The notes under the pieces: generated by a model
What the model was told of the DNA's origin: nothing
The model's input: the letters and a program-made list of their open reading frames with translations, nothing else
The model's database searches: none
From: Candidatus Liptonbacteria bacterium
Lineage (GTDB): Bacteria > Patescibacteriota > Minisyncoccia > UBA6257 > 2-01-FULL-56-20
Direction of reading: 5' to 3'
Assembly (NCBI GenBank): GCA_016204335.1
Contig: JACQKU010000008.1
Coordinates: 10,913-74,912 of the forward strand
DNA length: 64,000 nt
In this document: positions 11,961 through 53,932 of the stretch, in pieces
Numbering within the stretch: the stretch's first letter is position 1
Layout: each line of letters opens with the position of its first letter
Made by a program: the position numbers and the translations under genes

Positions 11961-11967
11961 AGCTACA

Positions 11968-12603
11968 ATGATGAATCCAACAATCAAAAAGGCAATCGCA
12001 ATATCGGCAAGCATTTTCATTCTGTTGATTGGTTATTACGGCTCGTATCTGCCGATGAGAAAATCCATGATTTTTATCGGCGTCATACAGAATACGGGAG
12101 GGATAAAGACCCTTGCCGATTTTGAACAGGCATTTTCCGAACCTCTTGATTATCCGTCGCCCATCGGCCAGGAAGAATTGGTGCGAAACACCGCGAATAT
12201 GACGGTAGGCAGTATTCAAAATATTTCTCCGGAAGGCGTCGACCAAATGGTGAATTATATCGAGAGCTATTACGAACCGATCATCAGCCGCGGCCGTGGC
12301 ATGAGTTTCGGGCAGAATCTCTATCTTCTCGGGGCTATCAACGAACTCGCCTTTTTGAAGACGCAAAAAACGAAGTATATTGACGATGCGGAAAAATACT
12401 TTACAAAAGCCCTTGATTTGGGGCCGAAACGGCCGCAGGGCCTGTACGGACTTTTTGACGTCTATCGCGTAAAAGGCGATATTCCGAACGCAACGAAAGT
12501 CGGGGAACAGATTCTCGGCCAGTGGCCAACCGACACGAAGATAAAGGAAACGCTTGATGCCATGTCCGCCGGCGCTTCTTCGGGCGCTGAAAAGAAGCGG
12601 TAA
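11968..12603 (+). CDS. Membrane-anchored protein with TPR-like C-terminal region
   Basis: N-terminal TM (AIAISASIFILLIGYYGSY) and C-terminal AEKYFTKALDLGPKRPQGLYGLFDVYRVKGD repeat-like segment. The antisense 258-aa ORF is rejected. Confidence 0.4.
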   Translation: MMNPTIKKAIAISASIFILLIGYYGSYLPMRKSMIFIGVIQNTGGIKTLADFEQAFSEPLDYPSPIGQEELVRNTANMTVGSIQNISPEGVDQMVNYIESYYEPIISRGRGMSFGQNLYLLGAINELAFLKTQKTKYIDDAEKYFTKALDLGPKRPQGLYGLFDVYRVKGDIPNATKVGEQILGQWPTDTKIKETLDAMSAGASSGAEKKR

Positions 12604-12607
12604 ATTT

Positions 12608-19266: not shown

Positions 19267-19902
19267 TCAGAACCGCGCTTCATGAATCACCTCCTGGCAG
19301 GAGAATCCTGTGCCAACTCGTCCTACGTGGACGCGGTCCACATGAAACTTTTCGGGCTTCGCCTTAAGTCCGCGCAAGCCCTCCTCGAACTTTTCTTCTT
19401 CATCCTCCCATCGGAAAGTTCCGAGCGTGAGGTGCGGAACGAAGTTGACTTGGGTCATCGGGGTTCCGTACGACCTGAAGCCGTTCCGCATGCCCGGGGT
19501 CATCTTTCCCCAGCGAGTCCTGATCTCTTCTCGCCTAGCCTCGTCGAAGAAATGGCGCAGTGCTTTGATGACCAGGAGATGGAGATCGGATAGCCACTTC
19601 GGTTTGTCGGTGGTAAGGAAAACAGCTCGATGGATCCGTCGCACGGAAACACCAGTGAGTCGGAGATCTCCGCCACGGAAGCCACATACCACGTCGTCGA
19701 GTGCGCCGGTGAACTCCCTGAACTTCTCCGGGCGCACAGGCAAGTGATACAGCGAGAGGTGCGGTAAGAACTCCTCCGCGCCGAGTTTCCATGGCGAGCC
19801 GTTTTCGTGAAGCCAGGCACTCAGCTTGATCGCCTGTCGCTGAATCGGTTCCGGCGGCAGGATGATGATGTCGTAGAAGCCGGGCCAAATCTCGGCCATC
19901 AC
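19267..19902 (-). CDS. 2H phosphoesterase superfamily protein (LigT/2'-5' RNA ligase-like)
   Basis: Two H-x-[ST]-x motifs (PHLSLYHL and PHLTLGTF) at the expected spacing. Gene lies in a clearly GC-richer segment (about 19190-19910). Confidence 0.55.
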   Translation of the reverse strand: MMAEIWPGFYDIIILPPEPIQRQAIKLSAWLHENGSPWKLGAEEFLPHLSLYHLPVRPEKFREFTGALDDVVCGFRGGDLRLTGVSVRRIHRAVFLTTDKPKWLSDLHLLVIKALRHFFDEARREEIRTRWGKMTPGMRNGFRSYGTPMTQVNFVPHLTLGTFRWEDEEEKFEEGLRGLKAKPEKFHVDRVHVGRVGTGFSCQEVIHEARF

Positions 19903-35870: not shown

Positions 35871-37142
35871 ATGGCAAAAACGGGTAAAAAAAGAAAAAAA
35901 ACGGTGGAAACGAGAACGACATGCCGCATCTGCGGGAGTTCCAATCTCGCGCGGTTTTTGAGTTTGGGAGAAACGCCGCTCGCGGACGCTTTCGTCGAAC
36001 GGGAAAATCTCGATAAGCCGGAGAAAAAATTTCCGCTTGACGTGGCGGTCTGCGCCGATTGCAATCTGGTGAAACTTGTGAACATCGTCGACCCCGAGTT
36101 GCTCTTCGGAGACAACTACGCGTTCTATACGTCGGCATCGCCGCAAGCTGTAATTCATTTCCGAAAATACGCGCACGAGGTGATGCGGAGATTTCCCAAA
36201 CTCGCGAAGAAGCTCACCGTCGATATCGCGTCGAATGACGGCGTGCTCCTCCGGCCAATGAAAGAGCTCGGGGCGAAAGTGCTCGGCGTTGACCCGGCGA
36301 AGAACGTCGTACCGGTCGCGCGCGCCGCCGGAATAGAAACGATAAACGATTTTTTCGGCGAGCGGTGCGGGGCGACCATTGTCAAGAAGTACGGGAGAGC
36401 GGGGCTCGTTCTTGCGAATAACGTTCTCGCGCACGTGGACGACGTGCATGATTTTATCAAAGGCGTACGATTGCTCCTTGACCCGAGGGGCGTTTTTATT
36501 TTTGAAACGCAGTATTTCCCGGCTCTATTTTTTAAGAACCAATTCGACAACGTGTATCACGAGCATCATTCGTTTTTTGCTTTGCGTCCGCTTATACGCC
36601 TGCTTGAGGCGAACAATATGAAGATATTCGATGTTGAGAAAATTGACACCCAGGGCGGGTCGATTCGGGTGTACGCCGAACATAAAAAAGGTCCGCATAA
36701 CATCCGGCCGATTGTCGGAAAAATGGTTCGTGCGGAACTTGATATGGGGCTTGACAGGGTAGAGACATACAAAGGGCTTCAGGAGCGCGCGCAGTATGTA
36801 AAAAAAGAGCTTTTGCGGATTCTCACGGATTTGAAGCGGCGGGGGAAAAAAATCGTCGGATACGGCGCGCCCGCGAAAGGCAACACGCTCCTCAACTTTT
36901 GCAAAATAGGCCCGGAACACCTCGATTACATTATTGACAAAACGTACTTCAAGCACGGGAAGTTCACGCCCGGCACGCACATTCCCGTGTTCCCGGTGGA
37001 AAAAATACAGGAGGACGGTCCGCCGGATTATTATCTTCTGCTTGTCTGGAATTACGCGCCGGGAATTTTGAAGCAAGAGAAAGAATTCAGGAAGAGAGGA
37101 GGTAAATTCATTATTCCGATTCCAGAGCCGGTCATTGTTTAA
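35871..37142 (+). CDS. NDP-hexose C-methyltransferase (TylC3/TcaB9-like: Zn-ribbon + SAM MTase + C-methyltransferase C-terminal domain), paralog 1
   Basis: CRICGSSNLARFLSLGETPLADAF (Cys4-type Zn ribbon), SAM-binding VDIASNDGVLL, and the C-terminal IVGYGAPAKGNTLLNFC domain. Confidence 0.75.
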   Translation: MAKTGKKRKKTVETRTTCRICGSSNLARFLSLGETPLADAFVERENLDKPEKKFPLDVAVCADCNLVKLVNIVDPELLFGDNYAFYTSASPQAVIHFRKYAHEVMRRFPKLAKKLTVDIASNDGVLLRPMKELGAKVLGVDPAKNVVPVARAAGIETINDFFGERCGATIVKKYGRAGLVLANNVLAHVDDVHDFIKGVRLLLDPRGVFIFETQYFPALFFKNQFDNVYHEHHSFFALRPLIRLLEANNMKIFDVEKIDTQGGSIRVYAEHKKGPHNIRPIVGKMVRAELDMGLDRVETYKGLQERAQYVKKELLRILTDLKRRGKKIVGYGAPAKGNTLLNFCKIGPEHLDYIIDKTYFKHGKFTPGTHIPVFPVEKIQEDGPPDYYLLLVWNYAPGILKQEKEFRKRGGKFIIPIPEPVIV

Positions 37143-41752: not shown

Positions 41753-43144
41753 CTATATCAATGGTTTTCCGGAGAGTTTTTTATACTCTTTTATCCCGAG
41801 CGCCTTGAGAATTGTAGGGGCGATTTGAACGGTTTCGACCTGCCCGAGGTTTCCTAAGGGGCCGCCTTCTTTTTTTAATATAATGACGCCTTCGGGAGCA
41901 TGCCCGGCATCGTCGGTCCCGACAGTAGTTCCTTCGGAATACAGCCCTTTATTCCCGATATCGTTATTGGTTCCGTAGCGAAGGTTGTCGAAATACACTA
42001 CTGCGTCAGGGGCTTTATCGCCTTTTTTCCTGTAAATTTTTGAAGTATCGTATACCTTTGTATTCAATTTTTCGCCTTTTACGCCTCTAATTAGCGGAAG
42101 TTCTTTACTAATCCGTCTCAAAATTTTCACCCTGTTTTTTTTGTCGTAAATATAAACATTTGCCTGATATCCTTCAGTGGCTATGACACTCGTTTTATCC
42201 CAGTCTATGGTTTCGTAGTCGAGTCGTTTCGGGCCGTTTGCGTAAAAATCCGCAAATTCTTTTTTTACGGCCAAAAAACCTTTTTCCCGCAGCCAGTCAT
42301 TTAAATTTATCCGGCGAATCATGTGGTCCATTCCATGGTCGGACACCACCATCACCGTTGTTCCGGAATCCATTTTTGAATGTTTCATAAATTTTCCGAA
42401 CTCCCCATCCACGTATTTATAGAAATCCAATACCGCGTTTTTGTAGGGTGAATTTTTGACGTAGCGTTCATGAGTGGGGTCAATATGCGCCCAGAACATA
42501 TGGTGAAGTCGGTCTGTGCCGATAGTCACAAAATCAAAAAGGTCCCAATCCATTTTTTCAAAAAGATAGCGGGCAATTTTGAAATGCTGTTTGGTCATTT
42601 TATAACTTTGCGAGATGAGAAAATCCAAATTCATTTTCTTATATCCCAGAAATCCGGCCACATCAAACATGTAATCTTTGCCGAAAAGAAGTTCTTGGAT
42701 TTTCTTCTTGAAAGAAACCGGATAGACGCTCTTATCGTCAAAGCTTGGAGTCAAAAAATCGGTTACCATTACCCCGTTAATTTTTTTTGCGGGATAGGTG
42801 AGAGGGATATTGAGCGCAATTGTCTTCTTTCCTTTTCTGCTCAGCATATCCCAAAGCAGAGGAGTTTTTATATCGGTAGATGTAACGAGCGAAGGAGTGC
42901 GGTAATGGCGTCCTTGTTTTGCCATATAACTTTGAATACCGGTTTCTCCGGGGTCCCTGCCGCTGTTGATAGAAGTCCAGGCGACGGTTGAAGTCGGCGG
43001 AACGGTGGAGTTCAAGATTCCGTAAGAACCTTCTTCGATAAGACAGGAAAAGTTGGGCAATTGGTTTCTATAACGCCCGAATACCAGTTTAGGGACAAAT
43101 CCATCTATGCCGAAAAGAAATACTTTTTGCTTTTTGGGTTTCAT
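41753..43144 (-). CDS. Alkaline-phosphatase-superfamily type I phosphodiesterase / nucleotide pyrophosphatase (PF01663-like)
   Basis: FLFGIDGFVP...STVPPTSTVAWTSINSGRDPGETG (metal-binding T/S nucleophile region) and MVVSDHGMD. Confidence 0.65.
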   Translation of the reverse strand: MKPKKQKVFLFGIDGFVPKLVFGRYRNQLPNFSCLIEEGSYGILNSTVPPTSTVAWTSINSGRDPGETGIQSYMAKQGRHYRTPSLVTSTDIKTPLLWDMLSRKGKKTIALNIPLTYPAKKINGVMVTDFLTPSFDDKSVYPVSFKKKIQELLFGKDYMFDVAGFLGYKKMNLDFLISQSYKMTKQHFKIARYLFEKMDWDLFDFVTIGTDRLHHMFWAHIDPTHERYVKNSPYKNAVLDFYKYVDGEFGKFMKHSKMDSGTTVMVVSDHGMDHMIRRINLNDWLREKGFLAVKKEFADFYANGPKRLDYETIDWDKTSVIATEGYQANVYIYDKKNRVKILRRISKELPLIRGVKGEKLNTKVYDTSKIYRKKGDKAPDAVVYFDNLRYGTNNDIGNKGLYSEGTTVGTDDAGHAPEGVIILKKEGGPLGNLGQVETVQIAPTILKALGIKEYKKLSGKPLI

Positions 43145-43149
43145 CGCAG

Positions 43150-44289
43150 TTATACGAATAATTTTTTTTCTTTAAGCAGTATCCTTGATATCTCGCGTCT
43201 TAGCATTTCCGCGGGAGGGGCTTTACCAATCGTAAGCATGTTCCGTATGAGCGTACCAGAGGAGTGCACGCGATACTTTTCTCCGTGCGGGCAGGCGTCC
43301 TCGAATGCGGTAGTCTTGCAACGCGTGCAGTAAAAGGCTTTTCCAAAATGGAAAATTTTTATGCCCATTGCGCGGTTATATTTTCCAATCATAAAGGCGT
43401 AATTTTGAAGCGTGTAAAAGTTTCCGACGCCCGTGTGGTCGCGCCCGACGATAAAATGCGTACAGCCGAAATTTTTGCGGATAACGGCGGTTAAAAGAGC
43501 CTCGCGCGGCCCCGCGTAGTAGGCATTGTAGGGAAGAAAGCTCAAGACGGCTTTCCCGCGCGGAAGAATGTGCGCCACAAAATAACGATAAGCTTTTGCC
43601 ACGACCTCATTCCGGAAATCGCCTTTCTTTTTAGAACCGATTAACGGATGCACAAGAATGCCGTCGGTTTTTTTAAGACCTTCCTTCTGGATGTGTTCAT
43701 GCCCAAGATGAGGCACATTCCTGGTATGAAACGCGACAATCTGTTTCCAATGCTTTTTTTGAAAAAGAGTTCTTGTTTCGCGCGGAGTCAGATACGGAAG
43801 TAATGTTCGAAGCGGTTTTCCGATCCAGGTAATATCTCCGCCGATAAGATACGGTTTTGCGCGTTTAAGTTTCGCCACGCCGGGATGCGCGACATCTGTC
43901 GTGCCGAATACTTTTTTTGCGAAAAGCGTTTTGGGAAAAGGATATATTTCTGAAATTTCGAGAAGCCCTATGATTTTTCCGGAAAAGTTCTTAAGAAATA
44001 TCTCCTTTTCTTTGAAAATTTTTTTTCGTTCGTCGGCATCAATATCAAGGATAATCGGGATAGGCCAGAAGACGTTGTTTTTCAGAGACAAATGATTGAG
44101 CACAGACAGGAAATCTTTTTTATTCAAGAATCCACTAAGGGGACTGTATGCTCCCGTTGCGATATTCCACAGTTCAACGATTTTTTCGTGAGCTATCGGA
44201 AGCGACCGAAGTTTTTGCGCCAAAAGCCGTCTCTTTTCTTTTGGAGACGCGATACGATTAATCAGCTTGTTGCCCAGAGGTTTATTCAT
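43150..44289 (-). CDS. sat: Sulfate adenylyltransferase (ATP sulfurylase)
   Basis: AFHTRNVPHLGHEHI (QTRNxxHRAHE-type motif) and IVGRDHTGVG (GRDHAG motif). Confidence 0.85.
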   Translation of the reverse strand: MNKPLGNKLINRIASPKEKRRLLAQKLRSLPIAHEKIVELWNIATGAYSPLSGFLNKKDFLSVLNHLSLKNNVFWPIPIILDIDADERKKIFKEKEIFLKNFSGKIIGLLEISEIYPFPKTLFAKKVFGTTDVAHPGVAKLKRAKPYLIGGDITWIGKPLRTLLPYLTPRETRTLFQKKHWKQIVAFHTRNVPHLGHEHIQKEGLKKTDGILVHPLIGSKKKGDFRNEVVAKAYRYFVAHILPRGKAVLSFLPYNAYYAGPREALLTAVIRKNFGCTHFIVGRDHTGVGNFYTLQNYAFMIGKYNRAMGIKIFHFGKAFYCTRCKTTAFEDACPHGEKYRVHSSGTLIRNMLTIGKAPPAEMLRREISRILLKEKKLFV

Positions 44290-44292
44290 GGA

Positions 44293-44511
44293 TTAAAGAT
44301 ATCCGAGTTTTTTCAGATGCTCGCGGATTTGCGTTTCTTCAGCAAAGAGCGGCTTATCGGTTTTTTCCAAAAGAAGTTCGCGCAAAATAAAGGCGACAAA
44401 AGCGGATACAGACACAAAGCCCGTGCCGTCGATTGTTTTTTCTATCCGGGCGTGAAGCGAACGGGGGATTGAGACAGTCGTGTAATCATTCCGTTTCTTT
44501 TTGATAGCCAT
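44293..44511 (-). CDS. Ribbon-helix-helix (CopG/NikR-like) DNA-binding protein
   Basis: TVSIPRSLHARIEKTI...GFVSVSAFVAFILRELL is an RHH signature. First gene of the sat operon. Confidence 0.6.
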   Translation of the reverse strand: MAIKKKRNDYTTVSIPRSLHARIEKTIDGTGFVSVSAFVAFILRELLLEKTDKPLFAEETQIREHLKKLGYL

Positions 44512-44777
44512 AGTGTAATTATGGGTAATTACAATTTGGTGTCAAGGGGTGGCTGTGGATAAACGTATTGGGTTAACAAAATGCCGATATAAGGCCTGTT
44601 TTATTGCTTATCCAGCCGGATTTTGCTAATATACGGCAATGATAAAGAAAAAATCTTCAAAAAAGCGGGTGCCAGAAAAAGAAGCGGGGAACGCCGACAT
44701 AGAAAAGCGGAAGGAGGGGGAGCGGAAAAAAGTTATGGAACAGTTGCGCGCGCTGGGATATATTTAGGGAACCAATG

Positions 44778-44904
44778 CCAGGCAGTAGAACTGCGACATT
44801 GGCAGTTCGTAATTTCAATGATTCATATCGCGAGAAAGGTCTTTTTTACTTTAGAAACTTGTAACAAGTCAGCCGCAGGCTGAAGTCGCAGTTTCACTGC
44901 CTGG
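44778..44904. repeat. Palindromic element family B copy 2 (CCAGGCAGTAGAACTGCGAC...GTCGCAGTTTCACTGCCTGG)
   Basis: Ends 2 nt before the ATG of the sulfatase-like gene. Confidence 0.5.
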
Positions 44905-44905
44905 T

Positions 44906-46300
44906 ATGCCTTCACAGAAAAGGAGAACAAAGCCCAACGTCATTTTTATTGTCATCGACGGACTGCGCGCCGACCATCTCGGCTCGTTCGGCTACCGCCG
45001 CCCCACGAGCAGATTTTTGGATGCGTTCGCGAAAAACTCGGTTAATTTCCGTTCGCACTTTTCAAACAGTTCTCAATCGGCGCCGGGATTTTTTTCTATT
45101 TTTGCATCGGCATATCCTTTTATGCGGAGCGATTGGACGACGACCAAGGGTCCTTATGAATTTTTAAGTGAAGTTTTTCGAAAAAACGGTTACAAAACTG
45201 CAGGATTCGCCTGTTCTCCTTATATCTCTTCATTCTTCGGCTATGACCGCGGGTTCGACGATTTTTATTATTCCGGATGCCATGATGATTCGGATGCGGT
45301 GAAAAAAACCATAAAGTCGACATTACCCTCGCGGATGTTCGAAATGCTCAAGAAGTTTGTTAAAACCACCACTATCGGAAAAATGATGAATCGTATCAGA
45401 TTCCGTTTTTTAATGCAGCCCGCTTACAGCAATTCGGAAGCAATCAATGAAATCGTGGAAAATCATCTTTCTCGTAGCGATTGCAATGACAGGCCTCTTT
45501 TCGCGTGGATCCACTACTTGGATGCGCATGTTCCTTTTAGAAGCAAAAAAAATGATATTCGGGCGGTGGGAGGACGCTTTGGCGCGCGGCGCGCAAATTT
45601 TTTGGACCGTAAAGTATTCAGCTTTACACTCCTCAATCCTTTTGTCGATGAAGAACGGATGACCGTTCAAGAACTCAAAGACCTTGAGCTATGTTATGAC
45701 GCGCAAATTTACCGCGCCGATCGCAATCTCGAAAAATTGTTTTCAATGCTTTCGGAGAACGGTATCTCCCGGGAGAATTCCGTAATCGCGATTACCGCCG
45801 ACCACGGAGAGGGATTCGGGGAACACTTCGGCATAGGGCATACTATGCGTCTTTATGATGAGTTGGTGCATGTTCCTTTCTTTTTATCAGTACCGGGAGG
45901 AAAACCGCGCGAAGTTTATGATCTCACCAATCATATCGATATTGTGCCGACACTCGCCGCATCCGCGGGAATTTCTTTGCGAAGCCGTTTCATCAAAGGC
46001 AAAAATGTGCTTAAGGGTTCGGATACAAAGTATGTCTTTAGCGAAGTCGCGCCGAACCTCGGCGGCATGCTCTCTAAAATAGATTTTTCAAGAAGCGTGT
46101 TTTCCGTCCGCGGAAAGGAATGGAAATATATCAAGGATTATGCAAGGGAAAGAGAGGAACTTTACCATTTATCGGAAGATCCTGACGAGTTGAAAGATCT
46201 GTCGCAAACGGAAGTAGACGTTAAAAACAAACTTTGGAATTTGTTGAGAGTACATATCAAGAGGAAAACGAAAGCGGTGCCGTATCTTAAGGATGTCTAG
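44906..46300 (+). CDS. Sulfatase-like hydrolase/transferase (alkaline phosphatase superfamily); canonical C/S-x-P-x-R sulfatase motif not evident
   Basis: NVIFIVIDGLRADHLGSFGY (metal site), TADHGEGFGEHF and overall sulfatase-domain layout, but NSSQSAPG in place of CxPxR. Confidence 0.65.
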   Translation: MPSQKRRTKPNVIFIVIDGLRADHLGSFGYRRPTSRFLDAFAKNSVNFRSHFSNSSQSAPGFFSIFASAYPFMRSDWTTTKGPYEFLSEVFRKNGYKTAGFACSPYISSFFGYDRGFDDFYYSGCHDDSDAVKKTIKSTLPSRMFEMLKKFVKTTTIGKMMNRIRFRFLMQPAYSNSEAINEIVENHLSRSDCNDRPLFAWIHYLDAHVPFRSKKNDIRAVGGRFGARRANFLDRKVFSFTLLNPFVDEERMTVQELKDLELCYDAQIYRADRNLEKLFSMLSENGISRENSVIAITADHGEGFGEHFGIGHTMRLYDELVHVPFFLSVPGGKPREVYDLTNHIDIVPTLAASAGISLRSRFIKGKNVLKGSDTKYVFSEVAPNLGGMLSKIDFSRSVFSVRGKEWKYIKDYAREREELYHLSEDPDELKDLSQTEVDVKNKLWNLLRVHIKRKTKAVPYLKDV

Positions 46301-47245: not shown

Positions 47246-48355
47246 TTATGAATTCGCGTAAAACTCTTTTATTTTTTCAATAACCTCATCTTTTTGTTCT
47301 TTGGTGATATGCGATGCTGACGGAAGTTGGAGCCCGTTCGCGCCGTAGTGGTCAGCCCACTTGAAATCACCCTTGTCGTTGTAAATCGGCTGGGCATGCA
47401 TGGGGATAAAGAATGTCCTTGTTTCTATCCCGTTCTTCGCAAGATATTCCATTAGCTCGTCGCGCCGCGGCGCCAAGAGTCCGAACATCCAAAATACGCA
47501 AAAAGTGTTTAGTGGTTCGGGAAAGAACCTTAATCCGGGGATATTTTTTAGGCCGTTCAGGTAATATTTCGCATTCGCCCTTCTTTTCAGAACCAATTCA
47601 TCAAGCCGCTTTAGTTGCGCAAGACCAAGTGCGGCACCTAACGCGGACATTCTAAGATTCCAGGCGATCGTTTTATGCCAGAAGTGTTTTTCATCATCAA
47701 AGTCATAACCTCGTATGTGGCGGAGCTTGTCGGTTAATTCGTAGTTATTCGTAAGGATCATACCTCCTTCTCCTGTGGTCATTATTTTGTTGGCATAAAA
47801 AGAAAAACAACTTGCTTCGCCGAATGTTCCCATAAGTTTTCCTTTGTATTTTGCGCCGTGTGCTTCGGCTGTGTCTTCGATAACAAGTAGATTATGTTTT
47901 TTAGCGATATCCATTATTTTGGACATGTCGCATGGTTCGCCGTATGCATGCACAGGCATGATGGCGCGCGTTTTTACAGTTATTTTTTCCTCAATTTTAC
48001 TTGGGTCGATGTTGAAACTTTTTTCGCTGGAGTCCACGAAAACAGGTGTCGCGCCGCAGTGGCTTACGGCTCCAGCGGTTGCCACCATTGTAAAACTTGG
48101 CATAATCACCTCATCGCCAGGAACAATTCCAAGCGCTTTCAGAGTCAAAAAAAGCGCGGAGCCGCCGGAATTCACGGCCACTGCATACTTCATCCCGAAT
48201 TTTTCCGCAAATGCGTCTTCCAGTTTTCCAACCGGCGAGGCTATCGAAGAGATTTCTTTGTTTTTTATGGCATCAACCACATAATTTATCTCAAGCTCTG
48301 ATATGTCCGGTTCGCAGACGCGGATTTTCACCGGATATTTATTGACACTGGGCAT
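47246..48355 (-). CDS. DegT/DnrJ/EryC1/StrS-family PLP-dependent sugar aminotransferase (GDP-perosamine synthase-like by context)
   Basis: VIEDTAEAHGAKYKGKLMGTFGEASCFSFYANKIMTTGEGGMI with the Schiff-base Lys region. Confidence 0.85.
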   Translation of the reverse strand: MPSVNKYPVKIRVCEPDISELEINYVVDAIKNKEISSIASPVGKLEDAFAEKFGMKYAVAVNSGGSALFLTLKALGIVPGDEVIMPSFTMVATAGAVSHCGATPVFVDSSEKSFNIDPSKIEEKITVKTRAIMPVHAYGEPCDMSKIMDIAKKHNLLVIEDTAEAHGAKYKGKLMGTFGEASCFSFYANKIMTTGEGGMILTNNYELTDKLRHIRGYDFDDEKHFWHKTIAWNLRMSALGAALGLAQLKRLDELVLKRRANAKYYLNGLKNIPGLRFFPEPLNTFCVFWMFGLLAPRRDELMEYLAKNGIETRTFFIPMHAQPIYNDKGDFKWADHYGANGLQLPSASHITKEQKDEVIEKIKEFYANS

Positions 48356-48369
48356 ATAAGTTTGTTATC

Positions 48370-49338
48370 TTATTTAGATTTTTTTTGCAAGTCGGCCAAA
48401 TCTGCTTCCACCATTAGCTTCACAAGTTCTTTGAATTTTATTTTTGGACTAAAACCAAATGCGTTTTGCGCTCTTGAGATATCGCCTACGAGTGCCGTGT
48501 TTTGCGCCGGCCTTAAAAATTTCGGATTTATTTTGACATATTTTTGAGAGTCAAGTCCGACGGTGGCAAAGGCCTCGTCTACGAATTCTTGCACCGAGTG
48601 CGCTTCTCCGGTGCAAATGATATAGTCATCCGCTTTTGGCTGTTGCATGATGTTCCACGCCGCCTCCATGTATTCTTCGGCGTAGCCCCAGTCGATTTTA
48701 GCCGAGAGGTCACCCAATTCAAGAACATCCTGGAGGCCGAGCGAAATTCGAGCGACGGACTTGGTTATCTTTCTTGTGACGTATTCGTCTGGTCTCCGCG
48801 GCGATTCGTGATTGTAAAAAATGGCAGTGGCAACGAACATGTCATACGCTTCGCGATAAAAGCGGCTTACGACGTAGGCCAGGACTTTAGCGCATGCATA
48901 GGGGCTCTGCGGCCGAAACGGAGTGTTCTCGTTCTGCGGATGTTCCGTTGCCTTGCCGAAGACATTCGAAGTGATGGGCTGGAAGAATTTTATGTCCGGA
49001 TTTACTTGTTTTACGATTTCAAGAATTTTTCCGACAGCCACGCCGGTAACATTATATTGATATTCCACGATGTCAAAACTCCAGCCAGCGTGGTCCTGGT
49101 CGGCTTCGTTGTAGATTTCTTCCGGATTAACTTCGCGGATTACCTTCCAGAGCGAGTTCGTGTCCAAAAGGTCGCCGCGATGAAGTATCAAAGAGTCCTT
49201 TATGTGTTCAATGTTTTTGGTGTTGCCGGTCGCGGTGCGCCGGATAAACCCGTGGACTTCGTATCCTTTTTCAAGAAGTATTTCGGCAAGATATGACCCG
49301 TCTTGCCCCGTGATGCCTAAAATGAGAGCTTTTTTCAT
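48370..49338 (-). CDS. GDP-mannose 4,6-dehydratase paralog
   Basis: [40 protein letters not shown]; about 60% similar in motif pattern to gmd at 12608. Confidence 0.8.
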   Translation of the reverse strand: MKKALILGITGQDGSYLAEILLEKGYEVHGFIRRTATGNTKNIEHIKDSLILHRGDLLDTNSLWKVIREVNPEEIYNEADQDHAGWSFDIVEYQYNVTGVAVGKILEIVKQVNPDIKFFQPITSNVFGKATEHPQNENTPFRPQSPYACAKVLAYVVSRFYREAYDMFVATAIFYNHESPRRPDEYVTRKITKSVARISLGLQDVLELGDLSAKIDWGYAEEYMEAAWNIMQQPKADDYIICTGEAHSVQEFVDEAFATVGLDSQKYVKINPKFLRPAQNTALVGDISRAQNAFGFSPKIKFKELVKLMVEADLADLQKKSK

Positions 49339-49411
49339 GCTTGTCAATTTTACCATCTTATCAACTCTTGAGAAAATATGAAAGAGGAGATGGATTGTCC
49401 TGCCCCGTTAT

Positions 49412-49921
49412 TCATTTCCTCCGGCGCCGATTATGAAAATGCCGCGCGATAAATCGGCGATGGATGGTAATCATCTTTCGCGGCAGGCGCGATGCGTCCC
49501 AAAATTTCATGTCCGCGGTTTCCCGAACCGTTTTCCTTGGCTCGCAAAGAACGTACACCGAGAGCGGTCGTCCGTAGGGATGTTCGCCTTCGCGCCATTT
49601 ATCGGCATCGAGGACTTCGAGATACTTCACATCGAAATCCAACTCGCGTTTTGCGACGCGCGAGCAGGTTTCCTGGATCGTTTCATTCCAGATATTATAG
49701 CCGCCAGGAATGTGCCAATAGCCGCGCGCGAATTTCCCCTGATAGGGCGTGAGAAGTATCTCGGCGCCATGCGTGCGTTTGCGGAGGATCACGAGTTCCG
49801 GCGCCCACATTGAAACCGCGCCATGGAGCGGTTCGAACGCTTCATCGGGAATAAAAAAATTTTGCTCGGGTATTTTTTTGAGGAGCCGCGCCAGTGTTTG
49901 CGCTTCTTTTTTCGTCATCAT
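49412..49921 (-). CDS. Divergent NUDIX-like hydrolase
   Basis: WHIPGGYNIWNETIQETCSRVAKRELD is a degenerate Nudix box. Confidence 0.4.
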   Translation of the reverse strand: MMTKKEAQTLARLLKKIPEQNFFIPDEAFEPLHGAVSMWAPELVILRKRTHGAEILLTPYQGKFARGYWHIPGGYNIWNETIQETCSRVAKRELDFDVKYLEVLDADKWREGEHPYGRPLSVYVLCEPRKTVRETADMKFWDASRLPRKMITIHRRFIARHFHNRRRRK

Positions 49922-50162
49922 GTCGTTCTCATCATAACCGATTTACCGAAGAATGAAAAAAAGGATGTGGTTCGCTCTTCCGTGAATCGAAAACTCCTCG
50001 CTAAATTGTGAGCAATTTCTTCTCCGTTTCCATCGCGGTGATTTGGAGGTGCCTTCTTTTAAAAATGGAAGAGGGGAACGCGGCGATGTCGTCGCGTCCC
50101 CCTCGGTGCTTCCCCGCGCGTCCTCCTGGTGCCGGGGTTTTCTGACCATATCGGCCGGTGCT

Positions 50163-50885
50163 CTAGTCGCCGAACGGGTAAGGTATGATTCCCTCCTCCT
50201 CGAGCTGGTCGCGGAGGCCGTCCGTGACCAGGCGGAAGATCGCGGCCCGCTTCGCGGCGAGGAGCTTCCCGAGCTGGGTGCGGATGCACACGCCCGACTC
50301 GGAATCGACCCAGTCGAGCGAGTAGGCGATGTCCCGGAACACCGTCCTCGGTGCCTGGTACGTTGCCTCAGGGTCGTCGAGGAAGTGTTTGTAGTCGACG
50401 ACCGGCAGATCCGCATAGTGCTGACCGGACCTTGCGAAAAGATCGCCGTCCAAGTTCACGATCCGGTCGGCGTCCATCAGCGCGATGAGCACCGGCGAGT
50501 CGTTCGAAGAGTTCTTGCCGTCGTGGCCGAGGACTGCGGCCACGATAGCATCCACTTCGGGGCCGTAGTAGCCGAAGACCGGCTCCGGGACGTGCCCATA
50601 CGCGGATGGGCGAGTCTCGGTCATAAGCCAGCTCTTGACGAGCCGGCTCGTTTCGTCAGTGGGCACTTCGCGCCGGCCAACGCCGAGCTTCTTCTGTATC
50701 ACCTTGTCGGCGTTGTGGCAGAGCCCGGCTACACCGGCGAGCTCAGCGGTCTGCTTGTCGGTCTCGTTGAGGCCGATCTGGTAGGCGATCTGGCCTACCC
50801 GCGCGGCGTGCACCCAATCGTGGTGCCCGACGAGACCGACTTCCTCGTGGCTCTTGTGGACTGCAGCGAACAAATCGGGGAACAT
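50163..50885 (-). CDS. HD-domain metal-dependent phosphohydrolase-like protein, paralog 1 (GC-rich xenolog)
   Basis: Shares ordered blocks with the next two genes (LAGVAGLCHNADKV / DADRIVNL / IIPYPFGD). Own SD (GGAGGGG) and terminator hairpin at about 50085-50115. GC content far above the window average. Confidence 0.6.
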   Translation of the reverse strand: MFPDLFAAVHKSHEEVGLVGHHDWVHAARVGQIAYQIGLNETDKQTAELAGVAGLCHNADKVIQKKLGVGRREVPTDETSRLVKSWLMTETRPSAYGHVPEPVFGYYGPEVDAIVAAVLGHDGKNSSNDSPVLIALMDADRIVNLDGDLFARSGQHYADLPVVDYKHFLDDPEATYQAPRTVFRDIAYSLDWVDSESGVCIRTQLGKLLAAKRAAIFRLVTDGLRDQLEEEGIIPYPFGD

Positions 50886-51119
50886 CTCCCAGATTCTCAC
50901 TTGCCCCTCCCTTCGGGTTAGAGTCGTTGCAAGAGCAGTTCGTCGGCAGAGATACACTCCGCCGTCAAACCGCCGGTTTTCGGTAAGGACGATACACATA
51001 CTTCCTTTCTTCAGTCGTATTCACTTTTCAAGGGCTGATATAGCGAAAGGGGCCAGGTCCGCCGAACTGCTTTTAGTGAAACATAAATCAAAAGATATGT
51101 CAAATCACCGCTCCCCCCG

Positions 51120-51821
51120 TTAATTCTTTTTTCGCGAAAACGGATACGGCCGAAGGCGGCTTTCCTTCAGCTGGTTTTCTATGTCCTGCATGAATATTTT
51201 GAGAAATGCGAACCGCTTCGCGCCGATTTTTTTTGCCTTGGGGAGCCGGAGCCATTTTTTCCACTCAAGCGAGTATGAGATGTCTTTTCCGACTGACTCG
51301 GGATGACGATAACTCGATGAGGGATGGTGGAACAGATGAATATAGTCAAGAACTGGAAGGTGTTCGAGCTCCTTCGCGCTCCGAAGGCACAGGAGCGCGC
51401 CGACATTCGCGAGACGATCCGCGTCTTTGAGCGCTACGGTTACTTTGCTGTCGCGCGGATCGTTTCGTTTGCGATGCTCCATTACTGCTTCGATCACCAA
51501 TTGTTTGTCGTTATGGTTGAGTGTGGTGTATTGTAAATATTGGATAAGTTTTTTCCGGACAAGAGTATCAAGGGTATGCTTTTTTCGGAAATGTTCCGGA
51601 ACGAGACCTCGTTCGATAAGATGATCCGTATTGTGGCATATTCCGGCAACCCACGCGAGTTTGGCTGTTCGCGCGTCGTCTGCGATGCGAACGCTGTAAT
51701 TCGCGACCATCAGCGCGTGCTCAAAGTCATGCCCGCTCTCGCTTGCCCTCACTTTTTCGTGATCGCGAATGACCATAGTAAGAAGTTCCGTGTATTTTTT
51801 GATGAGTGTTTCGATGGACAT
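51120..51821 (-). CDS. HD-domain phosphohydrolase-like protein, paralog 2
   Basis: RDHEKVR..GHDFEHAL...LAWVAGICHNTDHL...ALKDADRLANVGA...RPYPF. Confidence 0.6.
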   Translation of the reverse strand: MSIETLIKKYTELLTMVIRDHEKVRASESGHDFEHALMVANYSVRIADDARTAKLAWVAGICHNTDHLIERGLVPEHFRKKHTLDTLVRKKLIQYLQYTTLNHNDKQLVIEAVMEHRKRNDPRDSKVTVALKDADRLANVGALLCLRSAKELEHLPVLDYIHLFHHPSSSYRHPESVGKDISYSLEWKKWLRLPKAKKIGAKRFAFLKIFMQDIENQLKESRLRPYPFSRKKN

Positions 51822-51829
51822 GATTTATA

Positions 51830-52528
51830 TTATAGGAGGTGCTTGTATGTTGCGGGAAGCGGATACATCCCGATTGATTTCAATTGGCGCATAATATCGT
51901 TGAGCGCTTGGCGCATAAACTCGGCGCCCGGTTTGGAAATATGTTTTGCTTTCAGAAGCCGAATTTTCACCGATGGCTTCTCGGTCCATTCCAAAACATA
52001 GGTCAAATCTTCCACTGCTGTTTTTTCTTTGCCGAACGAATTTTTCAAGCGCATTGGCGAAACAAAATCGAAGAGCGACCTATTGTGATAATATTGCCCA
52101 ATGCGAAGGAGTACAATCGCGCCGAAATCCGCGATTCTGTCCGCGTCTTTCAGCGTTACGGTTACCCTATCATCGTTCGGATCATTTTTTTTCGTGTGAT
52201 TCATCACTGCCCGGAAAACGATTTCTTTTTCTGAAGCCGTGAGGGGAGTTTTTTGAAGATGCGCCTTAAGTATTCGCGGGGTGTTTCTGTTTCCGAACAA
52301 GCGGTCAGTGTTGTGGAGAATTGCCGCCAGCCAGGCAAGCCGCGCGGTTTTTTTATCCGGAGCGATTTTGAGCGCGGTGTTTGCCACGCGGAACGTATGC
52401 CCGATGTCGTGATGATGCCCCACTTTTTTCACTCGCGTTTTATGATCGCGCGATACTCGAGCAAGAAGCAGATGAAATTCTTTTCCCAAAGAAGGAAGCA
52501 GATAGGTAAAATCTTTCGAATTTCTCAT
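51830..52528 (-). CDS. HD-domain phosphohydrolase-like protein, paralog 3
   Basis: RDHKTRV..GHHHDIGHTF...LAWLAAILHNTDRL...TLKDADRIADFGA...MYPLP. The start codon is embedded in motif C (52528-52542). Confidence 0.6.
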   Translation of the reverse strand: MRNSKDFTYLLPSLGKEFHLLLARVSRDHKTRVKKVGHHHDIGHTFRVANTALKIAPDKKTARLAWLAAILHNTDRLFGNRNTPRILKAHLQKTPLTASEKEIVFRAVMNHTKKNDPNDDRVTVTLKDADRIADFGAIVLLRIGQYYHNRSLFDFVSPMRLKNSFGKEKTAVEDLTYVLEWTEKPSVKIRLLKAKHISKPGAEFMRQALNDIMRQLKSIGMYPLPATYKHLL

Positions 52529-52647
52529 CCCGTTAGAGACAGGTCGCCTCGGGCGACCGTAATTCAGCGGTTTTTACTGCAATCGCTTTTGGGACGGCAA
52601 GATAAGACATAGTTTAGAAATCATAGTATTGTTGTCTCTAACGGGAT
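52528..52647. repeat. Motif C module 2: ATCCCGTTAGAGACA - spacer with GGTCGCCTCGGGCGACC hairpin - TGTCTCTAACGGGAT
   Basis: 15-nt perfect inverted termini bracket the C-MT2 stop / HD3 start junction. Confidence 0.6.
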
Positions 52648-53855
52648 TTCTTCCCGATAATTCTGAATCGAGGAATCGGGACGATGAATTTTCCTCCGTT
52701 TTTGAGCCAGATTTGCTCGCGCTTCACGAATGTATCCGTGAACGCCCACGGCAAAATCAAAAAATAGTCGGGATTTTTTTTGCGCGCTTGTTCCTCGGAA
52801 ACGATAGGAATGTTTGTGCCAACGGTGAACTTGCCCCATTTTACTTTGTCTTTGTCGGCGGCGGCTGTGATTAACTTTGACGTGAGTCCATAGTATTGGA
52901 GAATGGTGTTGCCTTTTGTTGACGCGCCGTAGGCATAAACTGTTTTGCCTTTTTCAACTTCGCGTTTGATGAACTCAACGCACTTCCTTTTGTTTTCTTC
53001 GAGTCGCTTTGCGAAAGCGGGGTAATCGAATTTCGGCTCCGGATATTTGACGCTTCCCTTGTTTAGTTTTCGCGCGAACAAACGATAACTTCCTCCGTTT
53101 ATGGAATTTTCTTCGACTTTGAATATCTCGAGGCCGTTTTTCTCAAACAGGTACATCAGCGACGGATAAGAATAAAATTCAAGATGTTCGTGGCAAATGT
53201 TGCCGACGTCGTTTTTTTCGATCATGGGTTTCAGCGTCATCAGTTGCGCGATGAATACGCCGTCGTCGGCAAGGGCTTGAGCGGCGTCGCCGACGAACTG
53301 CCCCGGATTTTCCATATCGTAAAACATTCCGATGGCGGTGATGATTTTCGCTTTTGGAATCCCGAGTTTTTTATACGCCGCGTACGACCAGAAATCGTGA
53401 ATGATTTTGTCGGCGTGTTTTTTAAGCTTCGCTTGGAGATTGTTCGCGGGTTCGCAGGCGGCACGGATATAGTTCGGAGAGAAAAATTTCAAGAGCGTGC
53501 CGTCGTTCGCGCCGATATCCAAAACAACATCGTCTTTCTTGAGCTCCGCGAGTTTTTGGGAAACGCGGGCAATTTCTTTCAAATCGCTCACGATAACCGG
53601 ATTGACGGCGGACTGATACCAATAATGCCGTGAGTACATTATTTCTTGCGGGGCGGTATGTTTCAGTTGAAGCAAGCCGCACTTTGAATTTGAGCACAGA
53701 ACCAATTCCAGCGGCGCAAGTATCGGCTTTTTAGATTGTTTGGTTACGAAATCGGAAACCGCCAACTTCCCCAAAGAAAGAATTTTTTTGAGTTTTTTGC
53801 CTCCGCAGAGGCGGCAGGTTTTTCTTGTGATGTAAGATAGTTTTATTGCCTTCAT
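52638..53855 (-). CDS. NDP-hexose C-methyltransferase (TylC3-like), paralog 2
   Basis: CRLCGGKKLKKILSLGKLAVSDF Zn-ribbon, VLDIGANDGTLL, and C-terminal TVYAYGASTKGNTILQYY domain. Confidence 0.75.
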   Translation of the reverse strand: MKAIKLSYITRKTCRLCGGKKLKKILSLGKLAVSDFVTKQSKKPILAPLELVLCSNSKCGLLQLKHTAPQEIMYSRHYWYQSAVNPVIVSDLKEIARVSQKLAELKKDDVVLDIGANDGTLLKFFSPNYIRAACEPANNLQAKLKKHADKIIHDFWSYAAYKKLGIPKAKIITAIGMFYDMENPGQFVGDAAQALADDGVFIAQLMTLKPMIEKNDVGNICHEHLEFYSYPSLMYLFEKNGLEIFKVEENSINGGSYRLFARKLNKGSVKYPEPKFDYPAFAKRLEENKRKCVEFIKREVEKGKTVYAYGASTKGNTILQYYGLTSKLITAAADKDKVKWGKFTVGTNIPIVSEEQARKKNPDYFLILPWAFTDTFVKREQIWLKNGGKFIVPIPRFRIIGKKSR

Positions 53856-53932
53856 TTTGATCGTAAGATACTGTATCATATTATTAATCTGCCGTTAAGC
53901 CAAGCGAGCTTTTCACGACACATTTTGCTTAA

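Follow-up and report, generated by a model that had tools for sequence, protein, structure and literature searches.

Single-gene GC outliers are routinely taken as recent horizontal transfer. The question raised here is whether that reading applies to HD1, the GC-rich member of three adjacent HD-domain genes, or whether its composition has long been held in the gene lineage. The DNA analysed, referred to as the window, is a stretch of 64,000 nucleotides from a Candidatus Liptonbacteria genome. It contains a large surface-glycan locus, and the three genes fill a variable slot of that locus.

The GC-rich block and its gene slot

The features used below are listed in window coordinates; L numbers designate the genomes and loci compared.

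8922-10445: RNase Y gene.
47246..48355, minus strand: DegT/DnrJ/EryC1 sugar aminotransferase.
48370..49356, minus strand: GMD-like NDP-sugar 4,6-dehydratase/epimerase (Pfam matches), the downstream boundary of the slot.
49412..49921, minus strand: NUDIX hydrolase with weak similarity to GDP-mannose mannosyl hydrolase, directly downstream of HD1.
50043..50921, plus strand: antisense ORF of 292 aa across HD1, a composition artefact and no gene.
50061..50960, no strand: GC-rich block (63.3% GC versus 47.8% in the window), consisting of the HD1 coding sequence, terminator and a short leader.
50163..50900, minus strand: HD1, HD1-type HD-domain phosphohydrolase of 245 aa from GTG 50900; 63.9% GC, GC3 0.84.
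50901..51119, minus strand: HD2-HD1 spacer, with patches homologous to the L008 spacer by DNA alignment.
51120..51821, minus strand: HD2, HD2-type HD-domain phosphohydrolase of 233 aa; GC3 0.55, host-like; in a 48-tip subclade.
51830..52528, minus strand: HD3, HD3-type HD-domain phosphohydrolase of 232 aa; GC3 0.51, host-like; in a 19-tip subclade, a rare subfamily.
52638..53879, minus strand: sugar C-methyltransferase (MT13; Pfam Methyltransf_13/23/14), the upstream boundary of the slot.

The initial annotation had described three neighbouring minus-strand genes (50163-50885, 51120-51821 and 51830-52528) in a sugar-modification setting. ORFs were confirmed at these coordinates, and the setting was borne out, the slot being bounded by the sugar C-methyltransferase and the GMD-like dehydratase. 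The former was the commonest partner of the HD family, lying within ±6 kb in 30 of 49 HD loci; MT13, GMD-like or DegT genes were found within ±6 kb in 37 of the 49. The DegT aminotransferase was present in 24/49 loci (in L039 as a 72% orthologue at the same position), GMD-like dehydratase orthologues (71–78%) came after HD1 in L008, L039 and L102, and HD-NUDIX adjacency was seen again in L015, L016, L018 and L045.

The sharply GC-rich block reported earlier is a genuine compositional outlier, of about 0.9 kb (~50061-50960) rather than 1.1 kb. Neighbouring genes had 42–49% GC and GC3 values of 0.41–0.56, compared with 63.9% and 0.84 for HD1. GC3 of the window genes averaged 0.535 (sd 0.063); HD1 was highest among ~60 genes (z = 4.2 in its ORF-call form), and none of the others exceeded 0.69. 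When the window was divided into 64 one-kb bins, that at 50-51 kb (61.7% GC) was the sole outlier, the rest ranging from 41 to 54%. The spacers flanking the block were host-like (50961-51119, 47.8% GC; 49922-50060, 43.2% GC), and the non-coding 3′UTR of HD1 was also GC-rich (64.7%). Every class of synonymous site in HD1 showed the excess, also through AAG, GAG and CAG, none of them a typical optimal codon; NNY boxes were mostly C-ending (His 10/10, Phe 8/8, Asn 5/5), and amino acids were skewed to those with GC-rich codons (HD1 has 10 Lys where HD2 and HD3 have 24, and is richer in Ala and Gly). Assembly support was checked and no chimera was found: the separate Logan per-run assemblies SRR12113383, SRR12113424 and SRR12113385 each span HD2-HD1-NUDIX and both junctions, with 100% identity to the window over 4001, 3799 and 3191 nt, respectively.

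HD1 carries its own Shine-Dalgarno sequence and terminator hairpin, as the initial annotation had proposed. GGAGG (50906..50910, minus strand), read from the sequence, lies 5 nt upstream of the GTG at 50900, which is most likely the start of a 245-aa product beginning MRIWE, as in nearly all homologues; the ATG at 50885 given previously and the 278-aa NCBI call were disfavoured relative to this GTG with its GGAGG. The GGAGG box and the RIWE codons were conserved in L008. The intrinsic terminator (50061..50104, minus strand) is a GC-rich hairpin (50104-50071) followed by UUCCAUUUUU, a U-run, and folded with z = -2.56 in a 126-nt context; L008 has an equivalent hairpin and U-run with a different stem sequence. 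A consensus promoter scan of the HD2-HD1 spacer gave no match at the scan threshold. A TTGAC box at 51103-51099, within the patches homologous to the L008 spacer, may by its sequence be the -35 element of a putative HD1 promoter.

Spurious ORFs in other frames, also noted earlier, were found at 50043-50921 (plus strand), 49943-50416 (minus strand) and 50059-50289 (minus strand). The first is in codon alignment with HD1, and it is the rarity of TTA, CTA and TCA codons that keeps it open. Dual coding by this ORF was rejected, as antisense stops per 245 codons were similar in GC-rich HD genes (1.05) and GC-rich control genes (1.09) and the frame was kept open in 0/43 HD homologues with GC3 below 0.6.

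Protein family and age of the paralogues

The ordered blocks described for the three proteins could be aligned across all of them, giving 46 invariant columns, and their assignment as paralogues of an HD-type metal-dependent phosphohydrolase held up, through Pfam HD for HD2 and HD3 and through profile and fold comparison for HD1. With the Pfam HD profile (PF01966, cut-off 22 bits), HD2 scored 29.7 bits and HD3 27.3 bits, while HD1 had no Pfam match; scores with the family HMM were 369 bits for HD1, 197 for HD2 and 132 for HD3. A sequence-profile search of PDB HD proteins gave E = 1e-6 for 3DTO and 3e-4 for YpgQ. The AF2 model of HD1 (pLDDT 94.2) had the all-helical HD fold, and the closest neighbours in both fold and sequence were YpgQ-type proteins, with which size and single-domain architecture agree. 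The family comprised only 452 clusters among 1.84 billion representatives; named contigs carrying it were all CPR save one labelled Gammaproteobacteria, and there was one DPANN-labelled match. By sequence profile and predicted fold, HD1, HD2 and HD3 are therefore classed as a small, CPR-restricted branch of YpgQ/YedJ-like HD phosphohydrolases.

H27, H31, H62, H126, D143 and D145 were essentially invariant across 153 family proteins. At the Asp position of the doublet, directly after H62, 132 of the 153 have N, 15 have S and 3 have D, and D65 was kept in 146/153, so that the canonical H-D doublet becomes H-N-x-D. Replacement of this metal-binding Asp by Asn could alter or abolish catalysis. The diiron HD oxygenases have a six-ligand H...HD...H...H...D dinuclear motif (PMC8177086), and the suggestion that HD1 and its neighbours might be such enzymes (MIOX/PhnZ/TmpB) was rejected, since the family has Asn at the bridging Asp and only one invariant His (H126) between the doublet and the terminal Asp; fold ranking likewise points to hydrolases, structural similarity to MIOX, PhnZ or TmpB not being above that to hydrolases. 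Each copy is predicted to be a metal-dependent phosphohydrolase, probably with a different nucleotide, nucleotide-sugar or sugar-phosphate substrate, and these substrates would probably belong to a C-methylated, aminated GDP-6-deoxyhexose branch. Substrate diversification of the paralogues, proposed in the initial annotation, was judged plausible.

The same annotation had read the three genes as a tandem triplication in which a newly acquired copy lies next to two resident, ameliorated ones. Neither part agreed with the relationships found. BLASTP identity was 32.5% for HD1-HD2, 29% for HD1-HD3 and 37% for HD2-HD3, with Kimura distances of 1.2–1.6, and the root of the family tree separated an HD1 side (82 tips) from an HD2/HD3 side (71 tips). 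Against these 29–37% identities, closest relatives outside the window reached 85% for HD2, 82–83% for HD3 and 65% for HD1. The copies come from anciently separated subfamilies in separate clades, and therefore no recent triplication occurred; HD2 and HD3 are simply members of host-like subfamilies, and their orthologues in L038, the closest sampled relative, are 85% and 82% identical to them. HD1 had 86 homologues and HD3 only 7. HD arrays of differing membership, flanked by C-methyltransferase and GMD-like dehydratase genes, were a recurrent feature and were seen in L038, L039, L008, L102 and L053-55, with HD1 in the same slot in L039 and L102 as in the window.

Age and maintenance of the HD1 composition

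Recent acquisition of HD1 from a high-GC donor, as first proposed, was not supported. The best homologue among 5.8 billion proteins was 65% identical, in genome L008. In this search, the matches with a named source, a minority of all matches, were without exception CPR, and no named high-GC phylum was among them. A phage, defence or mobile-element origin was likewise rejected: PADLOC gave no matches, tblastn found none in 50,697 phage records, the only PHROG matches were weak ones of HD2 and HD3, to a family without assigned function, and searches at HD1 revealed no convincing terminal repeats and no target-site duplication.

In L008, HD1 lies at the orthologous HD2-HD1 junction, and the HD2-HD1 spacer, HD1 3′UTR and terminator are alignable with those of the window. 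GC3 of HD1 was 0.84 in both, compared with 0.54 and 0.65 in the flanks. G<->C differences at four-fold sites were 0.17 for HD1, 0.18 for HD2 and 0.17 for the dehydratase. The two-fold-site saturation index was 0.90 for HD1 versus 0.85–0.87 for the flanks, and G/C-ending two-fold sites made up 86%/75% (window/L008) in HD1 versus 44–54% in the flanks; to explain these sites, an inherited offset would have to be > 1.0. Because HD1 diverged like its flanks and its two-fold sites are ~90% saturated, a single decaying import is hard to reconcile with the data. The comparison used one 3.2-kb contig with 59–83 sites per class and a standard error of ~0.04–0.06, so that co-divergence of HD1 with the L008 flanks is a consistent, not an exclusive, reading.

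The offset extends beyond this pair. At the loci of the closest relatives of HD1 (54–65%; L008, L009, L010, L039 and L041), the gene was GC-richer than its own neighbours, and HD had the top GC3 of its neighbourhood in 20/52 loci versus 4.9 expected (p = 2e-8). Regression of gene GC3 on host GC3 gave a slope of 0.53 (r 0.49) for HD, compared with slopes of 1.07–1.17 (r 0.88–0.97) for MT13, GMD-like and DegT genes. In many CPR lineages the composition of HD genes, chiefly those of the HD1-type clade, is thus uncoupled from that of the host. Offsets were over-dispersed in both directions: HD GC3 was 0.52 versus 0.19 in the very AT-rich host L022, 0.36 versus 0.42 in L103, whose HD is a 57% relative of HD1, and ~0.1 below the host in Peribacteria loci. 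The latter two, at or below host GC3, weaken the idea of a universal GC "set-point" for the family.

Folding z-scores of mRNAs were calculated against synonymous-codon shuffles; dinucleotide shuffles were dropped because they destroy codon periodicity. Window HD1 had z = -3.35, and 13 ordinary window genes given the same test had a mean z of -0.04 (sd 1.28). Over 39 matched pairs, HD genes averaged -1.81 versus -0.83 for neighbours (paired p = 0.014), a modest excess of about 1 z-unit, and z was correlated with GC3 offset (rho = -0.37, p = 0.02). The median for GC-offset non-HD controls was -0.71, with Mem_trans genes (-7.7, -5.1) as exceptions. GC-rich HD genes, like the Mem_trans genes that accompany them, exceeded their synonymous-codon shuffles in mRNA stability. 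RNAalifold on 14 HD1-clade genes detected no conserved helices (energy -15 kcal/mol; covariation term -0.7 kcal/mol), and the sole Rfam match in the window was a tRNA, with none in the HD1 coding sequence. As no helices are conserved in the clade, structural selection, if any, would be generic rather than helix-specific.

Given the L008 co-divergence, the family-wide uncoupling and the mRNA folding, the GC-richness of HD1 looks long held in the gene lineage and maintained, not the trace of a recent import. The explanation that we prefer, to which as a whole we assign about an even chance, is that the HD paralogues are ancient and that the GC-richness of HD1 is ancestral and maintained by a gene-specific force. 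HD1 would have stood beside HD2, already GC-rich, in the common ancestor with L008, and its excess of G/C-ending codons would have been held through near-saturating synonymous turnover. The force would act on nucleotides or RNA, with selection for a stable, structured transcript as first candidate and GC-biased gene conversion in a putatively recombination-prone slot as second.

Lateral exchange of HD1-type genes among CPR lineages that differ in GC, a broader form of the initial proposal, is a serious competitor, though clearly the less probable account. In this view a CPR donor of higher GC, perhaps a Liptonbacteria lineage at ~60% GC, supplied the HD1 of the window, which is still unameliorated, and L008 gained a related allele on its own or through replacement. 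The block is sharply bounded, with its own Shine-Dalgarno and terminator, and HD1 is GC-skewed in its amino acids as well. In L038 the corresponding site lacks HD1 and is taken up by another GC-rich trio, gene order right of HD2 is mosaic among relatives, and between L009 and L039 MT13 is 91% identical but HD only 66%. Read as GC%, the numbers in Liptonbacteria MAG names span _35_ to _60_, which makes a GC-rich donor inside the phylum possible. Over-dispersed HD offsets with extremes in AT-rich hosts, and the slope of 0.53, are the pattern expected of frequent lateral exchange and count against the explanation that we prefer. A Mantel test of HD against MT13, dehydratase and DegT distances, addressing whether HD is more mobile, gave weak correlations throughout (r = 0.16–0.61) because of paralogy and locus mosaicism. 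Against lateral exchange, the search of 5.8 billion proteins yielded no donor-like sequence, and no source genome is visible, the HD1 genes of the sampled closest relatives being themselves GC-richer than their neighbours. Junction and UTRs have their orthologues in L008, and HD1 keeps pace with its flanks on the G<->C clock. The flanking genes, at 65–78% amino-acid identity, would be too diverged for precise homologous replacement by a GC-rich donor. Phage, defence and mobile-element hallmarks were absent in the searches above, and folding in excess of synonymous-codon shuffles is not predicted by transfer.

A bolder form of the maintained-composition reading, which we regard as doubtful, treats the GC-richness of HD1-type and accompanying Mem_trans genes as a selected transcript trait with its own base-composition set-point across hosts. 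Being G/C-rich and well folded, these mRNAs of AT-leaning CPR genomes may be protected from an AU-directed endoribonuclease, for example the RNase Y encoded in the window; alternatively, the HD proteins themselves might have ribonuclease-like activity.

GC-biased gene conversion on its own, with a putative hot spot after HD2 driving HD1 (and the Mem_trans and His_Phos_1 genes of relatives) to G/C and no selection on RNA or protein, is improbable. The mosaic locus, the excess on all synonymous classes including AAG, GAG and CAG and its extension into the non-coding 3′UTR fit conversion, as does the higher GC3 of recombining bacterial genes in 11/14 taxa, chiefly on non-optimal GC-ending codons (Lassalle et al. 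2015, PMC4450053). However, MT13, GMD-like and DegT genes of the same loci are without offset, the block boundaries are those of one transcription unit and not of an arbitrary tract, and conversion does not predict folding beyond synonymous-codon shuffles. Bacterial conversion is moreover reported to shift GC3 by a few percentage points, far short of +0.3.

Translational selection, in which HD1 is very highly expressed and its optimal codons happen to end in G or C, is very unlikely: the C-ending NNY boxes would fit, but GC3 of iPGM and RNase Y, the housekeeping genes of the window, is no higher than 0.60 (ribosomal-protein genes, the usual reference, lie outside it), and the bias covers AAG, GAG, CAG and the amino-acid level. 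Hardly credible is an artefact, with the block as chimera or contaminant or the antisense ORF as the real gene, for although composition changes abruptly and the antisense ORF is full-length, the NCBI MAG and three per-run assemblies agree with 100% identity across both junctions, HD1 is backed by 86 homologues and a model of pLDDT 94, and no more of the antisense frame is open than composition would predict.

Implications and comparison with known systems

If HD1 is indeed a maintained outlier, composition-based calls of horizontal transfer can be wrong for whole gene families, and RNA-level selection or biased conversion can hold one gene ~0.3 GC3 units off its genome. The proteins form a small, uncharacterised branch of HD phosphohydrolases, nearly exclusive to CPR, which has H-N-x-D where others keep a canonical metal ligand, and their genes lie in close linkage with a C-methyl, amino, 6-deoxy-sugar pathway. 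The enzymes are candidates for an undescribed step by which ultra-small symbiotic bacteria make their surface glycans, and the variable paralogue slot offers a concrete case of glycan-locus diversification.

Among characterised proteins, the family was likened to YpgQ of Bacillus subtilis (PDB 5DQV/5DQW), an Mn-dependent (d)NTP pyrophosphohydrolase, near which the structural-genomics entries 2PQ7, 3DTO, 3B57, 2PJQ, 3DJB and 2QGS also fall. Both are single-domain, all-helical proteins of ~190–245 aa. The mononuclear Mn site of YpgQ is formed by H29, H58, D59 and D124, with H25 and R136 nearby (PMC8177086). YpgQ H29, H58, D124, H25 and R136 correspond to the invariant H31, H62, D145, H27 and R157, so that three of four Mn ligands are conserved; the equivalent of D59 is Asn or Ser in 147/153 proteins, with a conserved Asp two residues on. 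The family differs in showing only 14–19% sequence identity to YpgQ, in having invariant H126, N130 and D143, a variable insertion (~95–115 of HD1) and a conserved C-terminal PYPF motif, and in being known from sequence only, confined to CPR (plus the DPANN-labelled match) and sitting in glycan loci. The match to Escherichia coli YedJ (PDB 3GW7; NCBIfam PRK10119 "phosphohydrolase") scored 23 bits, far below the NCBIfam cut-off of 286; YedJ presumably retains the H-D doublet. MIOX, PhnZ and TmpB have the HD superfamily and several conserved histidines in common with it.

With respect to composition, HD1 resembles cases of bacterial GC-biased gene conversion in that its GC3 excess lies largely on translationally non-optimal codons at a putatively recombination-prone locus; it differs in that the magnitude is far larger and the effect is confined to one transcription unit, locus neighbours being unaffected. 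Under the model of Lawrence and Ochman, compositionally atypical genes reportedly mark recent horizontal transfer and then ameliorate. HD1 looks like such a case: one gene whose GC3 exceeds that of its genome by 0.3, sharply bounded, skewed in amino acids and absent from the closest relative. It departs from the model in that no donor-like genome was found, the offset is common to the L008 orthologue after near-saturating synonymous divergence and reflects a family-wide tendency, and the mRNA shows excess folding.

The HD gene array and its GC-rich member

Three adjoining minus-strand HD-domain genes (HD1, HD2 and HD3) lie in this Candidatus Liptonbacteria MAG, in which the HD1 protein is HY433_01315. 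As the initial annotation had it, their products share an ordered series of blocks, spanned by 46 invariant columns in our alignment; HD1 has its own Shine-Dalgarno sequence and terminator, and its GC-rich block gives rise to spurious ORFs in other frames.

50163-50999 or 50163-50885, minus strand, HD1 ORF as called
51120-51821, minus strand, HD2 ORF as called
51830-52528, minus strand, HD3 ORF as called
about 50061 to 50960, GC-rich block of about 0.9 kb, 63.3% GC, with host-like spacers on its two sides (47.8% and 43.2% GC)
50910-50906, minus strand, Shine-Dalgarno GGAGG preceding GTG 50900 of HD1
50104-50071, minus strand, HD1 terminator, a GC-rich hairpin of 12-bp-plus followed by UUCCAUUUUU

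Nearly all homologues begin with MRIWE, which makes GTG 50900 the most probable start of HD1 (245 aa). The ATG at 50885 chosen initially is five codons short of this position, and the public NCBI annotation (278 aa, ATG 50999, 50163-50999, minus strand) appears to begin 33 codons too early compared with the MRIWE start.

Whole-window GC was 47.8%, and 1-kb bins ranged from 41 to 54% with the sole exception of 50001-51000 (61.7%); the GC-rich block measures about 0.9 kb rather than 1.1 kb. HD1 is 63.9% GC (GC1/GC2/GC3 = 0.68/0.39/0.84) and has the top GC3 among about 60 window genes, the ten genes neighbouring it lying at 0.41-0.60. The second outlier (GC3 0.69 vs a mean of 0.53) encodes a 211-aa LigT/2'-5' RNA ligase-like phosphoesterase (19267-19902, minus strand), whose transcript was, as for HD1, more stable than its synonymous-codon shuffles (z of -2.2 in one run and -2.4 in the other). 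On the assembled sequences, an artefact, chimera or contaminant was rejected, as Logan assemblies of three separate runs each carried HD2-HD1-NUDIX at 100% identity to the window over 4001 (SRR12113383), 3799 (SRR12113424) and 3191 nt (SRR12113385).

An 11-nt perfect inverted repeat (GCGGTGATTTG; 50035-50045 / 51101-51111) flanks the HD1 cassette, and an 11-nt direct repeat (49904-49914 / 51124-51134) has its copies at the HD2 3' end and the NUDIX 5' end. Neither is conserved in L008, the SRR22388145 contig with the best HD1 match, and neither outranks other repeats of the region; both are probably chance.

Paralogue subfamilies in a variable glycan slot

The tandem triplication originally proposed did not hold. 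BLASTP identities within the window were low (HD1-HD2 32.5%, HD1-HD3 29%, HD2-HD3 37%) with Kimura distances of 1.2-1.6, and each gene has closer relatives in other genomes (HD2 85%, HD3 82-83%, HD1 65% identity). In a distance tree of 153 homologues, HD1 fell inside an 82-tip clade; the remaining clade, of 71 tips, has HD2 in one subclade (48 tips) and HD3 in another (19 tips). Judged from these comparisons, HD1-HD2-HD3 brings together three old subfamilies as an array, and the slot they occupy is variable. Arrays of differing membership recur in this slot, between a Methyltransf_13/14 C-methyltransferase (MT13) and a GMD-like dehydratase.

Membership of arrays in fetched loci with HD-family homologues
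L038: MT13-HD3-HD2-Mem_trans-His_Phos_1-229aa
L039: MT13-HD2(partial)-Mem_trans-HD1-dehydratase-DegT
L008: HD2-HD1-dehydratase
L102: MT13-HD3-HD1-dehydratase
L009: MT13-Mem_trans-His_Phos_1-HD1
L053-L055: two HD1-type genes in tandem directly after Mem_trans (about 1800-3900 in L055)

At the site equivalent to HD1, L038 has three different GC-rich genes (10813-13224): Mem_trans (GC3 0.69), His_Phos_1 (0.80) and a 229-aa protein without Pfam match (0.77), vs about 0.55 nearby.

Of 49 HD loci, 37 had MT13, the GMD-like dehydratase or DegT (one or more of them) within ±6 kb, and a NUDIX gene adjoins the HD gene in four Peribacteria loci and in the window. The window is one large glycan island containing Wzy, a bona fide GMD (12554-13633, plus strand), a second Methyltransf_13/14 C-methyltransferase (35820-37142, plus strand), glycosyltransferases, phosphodiesterases, heptose-type genes and a sulfation-type module (41753-46300: phosphodiesterase, ATP-sulfurylase, sulfatase-like gene). 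In L009, L014 and L039, HD1-type genes likewise have CysN/CysD and sulfatase-like genes nearby. The predicted HD proteins may hydrolyze phosphorylated or nucleotide-linked intermediates of a C-methylated and aminated GDP-6-deoxyhexose branch, and the three subfamilies would differ in specificity. Two other genes of the fetched loci carry unusual matches: an intein match in a 669-aa GMD-like/epimerase gene (L098, 12095-12672) and an internal His_Phos_1 match in a 1077-aa valyl-tRNA synthetase (L097, 9736-12678).

Possible causes of the GC excess of HD1

A further 86 loci were fetched, and the 52 unique cases with at least 5 neighbours were used. The HD gene had the highest GC3 of its neighbourhood in 20/52 loci (4.9 expected, p = 2e-8) and the lowest in 6/52 (4.9 expected); offsets exceeded +0.1 in 19 and were below -0.1 in two. 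Extremes of HD GC3 vs surroundings were 0.52 vs 0.19 (L022), 0.61 vs 0.28 (L095) and 0.83 vs 0.52 (L025). Offsets are spread throughout the HD1-type clade and are mild in HD2-type genes (0 to +0.12). Exceptions are L103, a 57% relative of HD1 slightly below host GC3, and four syntenic Peribacteria loci with the HD gene about 0.1 below.

Gene GC3 regressed on that of the neighbours (partner offset sd is the range over the three partner families)
HD: slope 0.53, r 0.49, sd of offset 0.115
MT13: slope 1.07, r 0.88, sd of offset 0.04-0.06
GMD-like: slope 1.11, r 0.97, sd of offset 0.04-0.06
DegT: slope 1.17, r 0.95, sd of offset 0.04-0.06

A GC-rich HD1 beside two HD paralogues is real, and the recent xenologue of the initial annotation is replaced by a maintained, gene-specific GC-rich state at about an even chance. 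Transcript stability was compared with synonymous-codon shuffles, which hold protein and codon usage fixed. Window HD1 mRNA was more stable than its shuffles (z = -3.35), while thirteen ordinary window genes averaged -0.04 (sd 1.28). Over 39 locus-matched pairs, mean z was -1.81 for HD genes and -0.83 for neighbours (paired Wilcoxon p = 0.014), with z < -2 in 17/39 and 5/39, respectively. HD folding z fell with GC3 offset (rho = -0.37, p = 0.02) and was negative in 18/18 HD genes with offset of at least +0.10; in the neighbours, z was unrelated to GC3. Among non-HD genes with a GC offset the median z was -0.71; exceptions were the Mem_trans genes found alongside HD1-type genes (-7.7 in L038, -5.1 in L009, -2.5 and -1.7). 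These data give moderate support to a generic selection for transcript stability; the folding excess is predicted neither by recent horizontal transfer nor by GC-biased conversion.

The main rival is recurrent lateral exchange. As regards a recent import of HD1, sharp boundaries of the GC block, a bias that reaches all codon classes (G or C ends 85% of the two-fold codons, vs 41% across the genome), a shifted amino-acid make-up (10 Lys vs 24 in HD2 and HD3) and the absence of HD1 at its site in L038, the closest relative (MT13, HD3 and HD2 81-85% identical), all favour it; however, no donor is visible, the best match among 5.8 billion proteins being 65% identical. No phage or defence matches were found. 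The 65% match sits in L008 in an orthologous-looking context, where it follows an HD2 (65% identical) and precedes a dehydratase (77.5% identical), with alignable HD2-HD1 spacer and HD1 3'UTR (including an identical 16-mer and the terminator), and it is equally GC-rich (GC3 0.835 vs 0.65 in flanks). Using G<->C differences at four-fold sites as a clock blind to GC pressure, we obtained 0.17 for HD1, 0.18 for HD2 and 0.17 for the dehydratase, with only 59-83 sites per class on this 3.2-kb contig; HD1 would thus have diverged together with its flanks, which argues against the recent acquisition first proposed. Two-fold sites are near saturation (index 0.90 for HD1, 0.85-0.87 for flanks), yet those of HD1 are 86%/75% G/C-ending vs 44-54% in flanks. 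At such turnover an inherited offset is calculated to decay to about one-third per lineage, and the present +0.42 would therefore need an ancestral offset >1.0, which is impossible. For this pair, the numbers reject one import ahead of the window/L008 split with neutral amelioration ever since; two precise replacements, each independent of the other, would be a less parsimonious alternative.

GC-biased gene conversion (PMC4450053) is a further candidate that would fit the mosaic of the slot among relatives. Translational selection is unlikely to be the cause, the antisense ORF across HD1 is a composition artefact rather than a gene, and no conserved RNA structure was found in HD1-type genes by an Rfam match scan of the window or an alignment of 14 HD1-clade genes. 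An RNase Y gene (RNase_Y_N + KH + HD; 8922-10445, plus strand) lies about 40 kb from the array; its sole relevance, a speculative one, would be that GC-rich transcripts escape AU-directed cleavage.

Relation to YpgQ-like hydrolases

The HD family comprises 452 clusters at E <= 1e-3 among 1.84 billion representatives, and its named source records are CPR/Patescibacteria except for one DPANN-labelled and one Gammaproteobacteria-labelled record. P0160, a 45% identical HD3-type homologue (one of only seven found), is labelled Nanoarchaeota (DPANN), which hints at gene sharing between two ultra-small symbiont groups or at a binning error. The Pfam HD threshold was passed by HD2 and HD3 and not by HD1. 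For HD1, an AF2 model from 29 sequences reached pLDDT 94.2, and Foldseek and a PDB sequence-profile search were concordant. Of the two activities first considered, HD phosphohydrolase was retained as the predicted one, in a YpgQ/YedJ-like branch; the diiron oxygenase alternative is unsupported because MIOX, PhnZ and TmpB were absent from the matches of both searches.

YpgQ binds one Mn via H29, H58, D59 and D124, and H25 and R136 lie close to the site (PMC8177086). Among 153 HD-family members, the equivalents H31, H62, D145, H27 and R157 are essentially invariant, and H126, N130 and D143 likewise. Unlike in YpgQ, the D59 position is Asn in 132/153, Ser in 15/153 and Asp in 3/153; 146/153 retain an Asp two positions further on. 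On these residues, the family belongs to the YpgQ/YedJ-like branch as an H-N-x-D variant.
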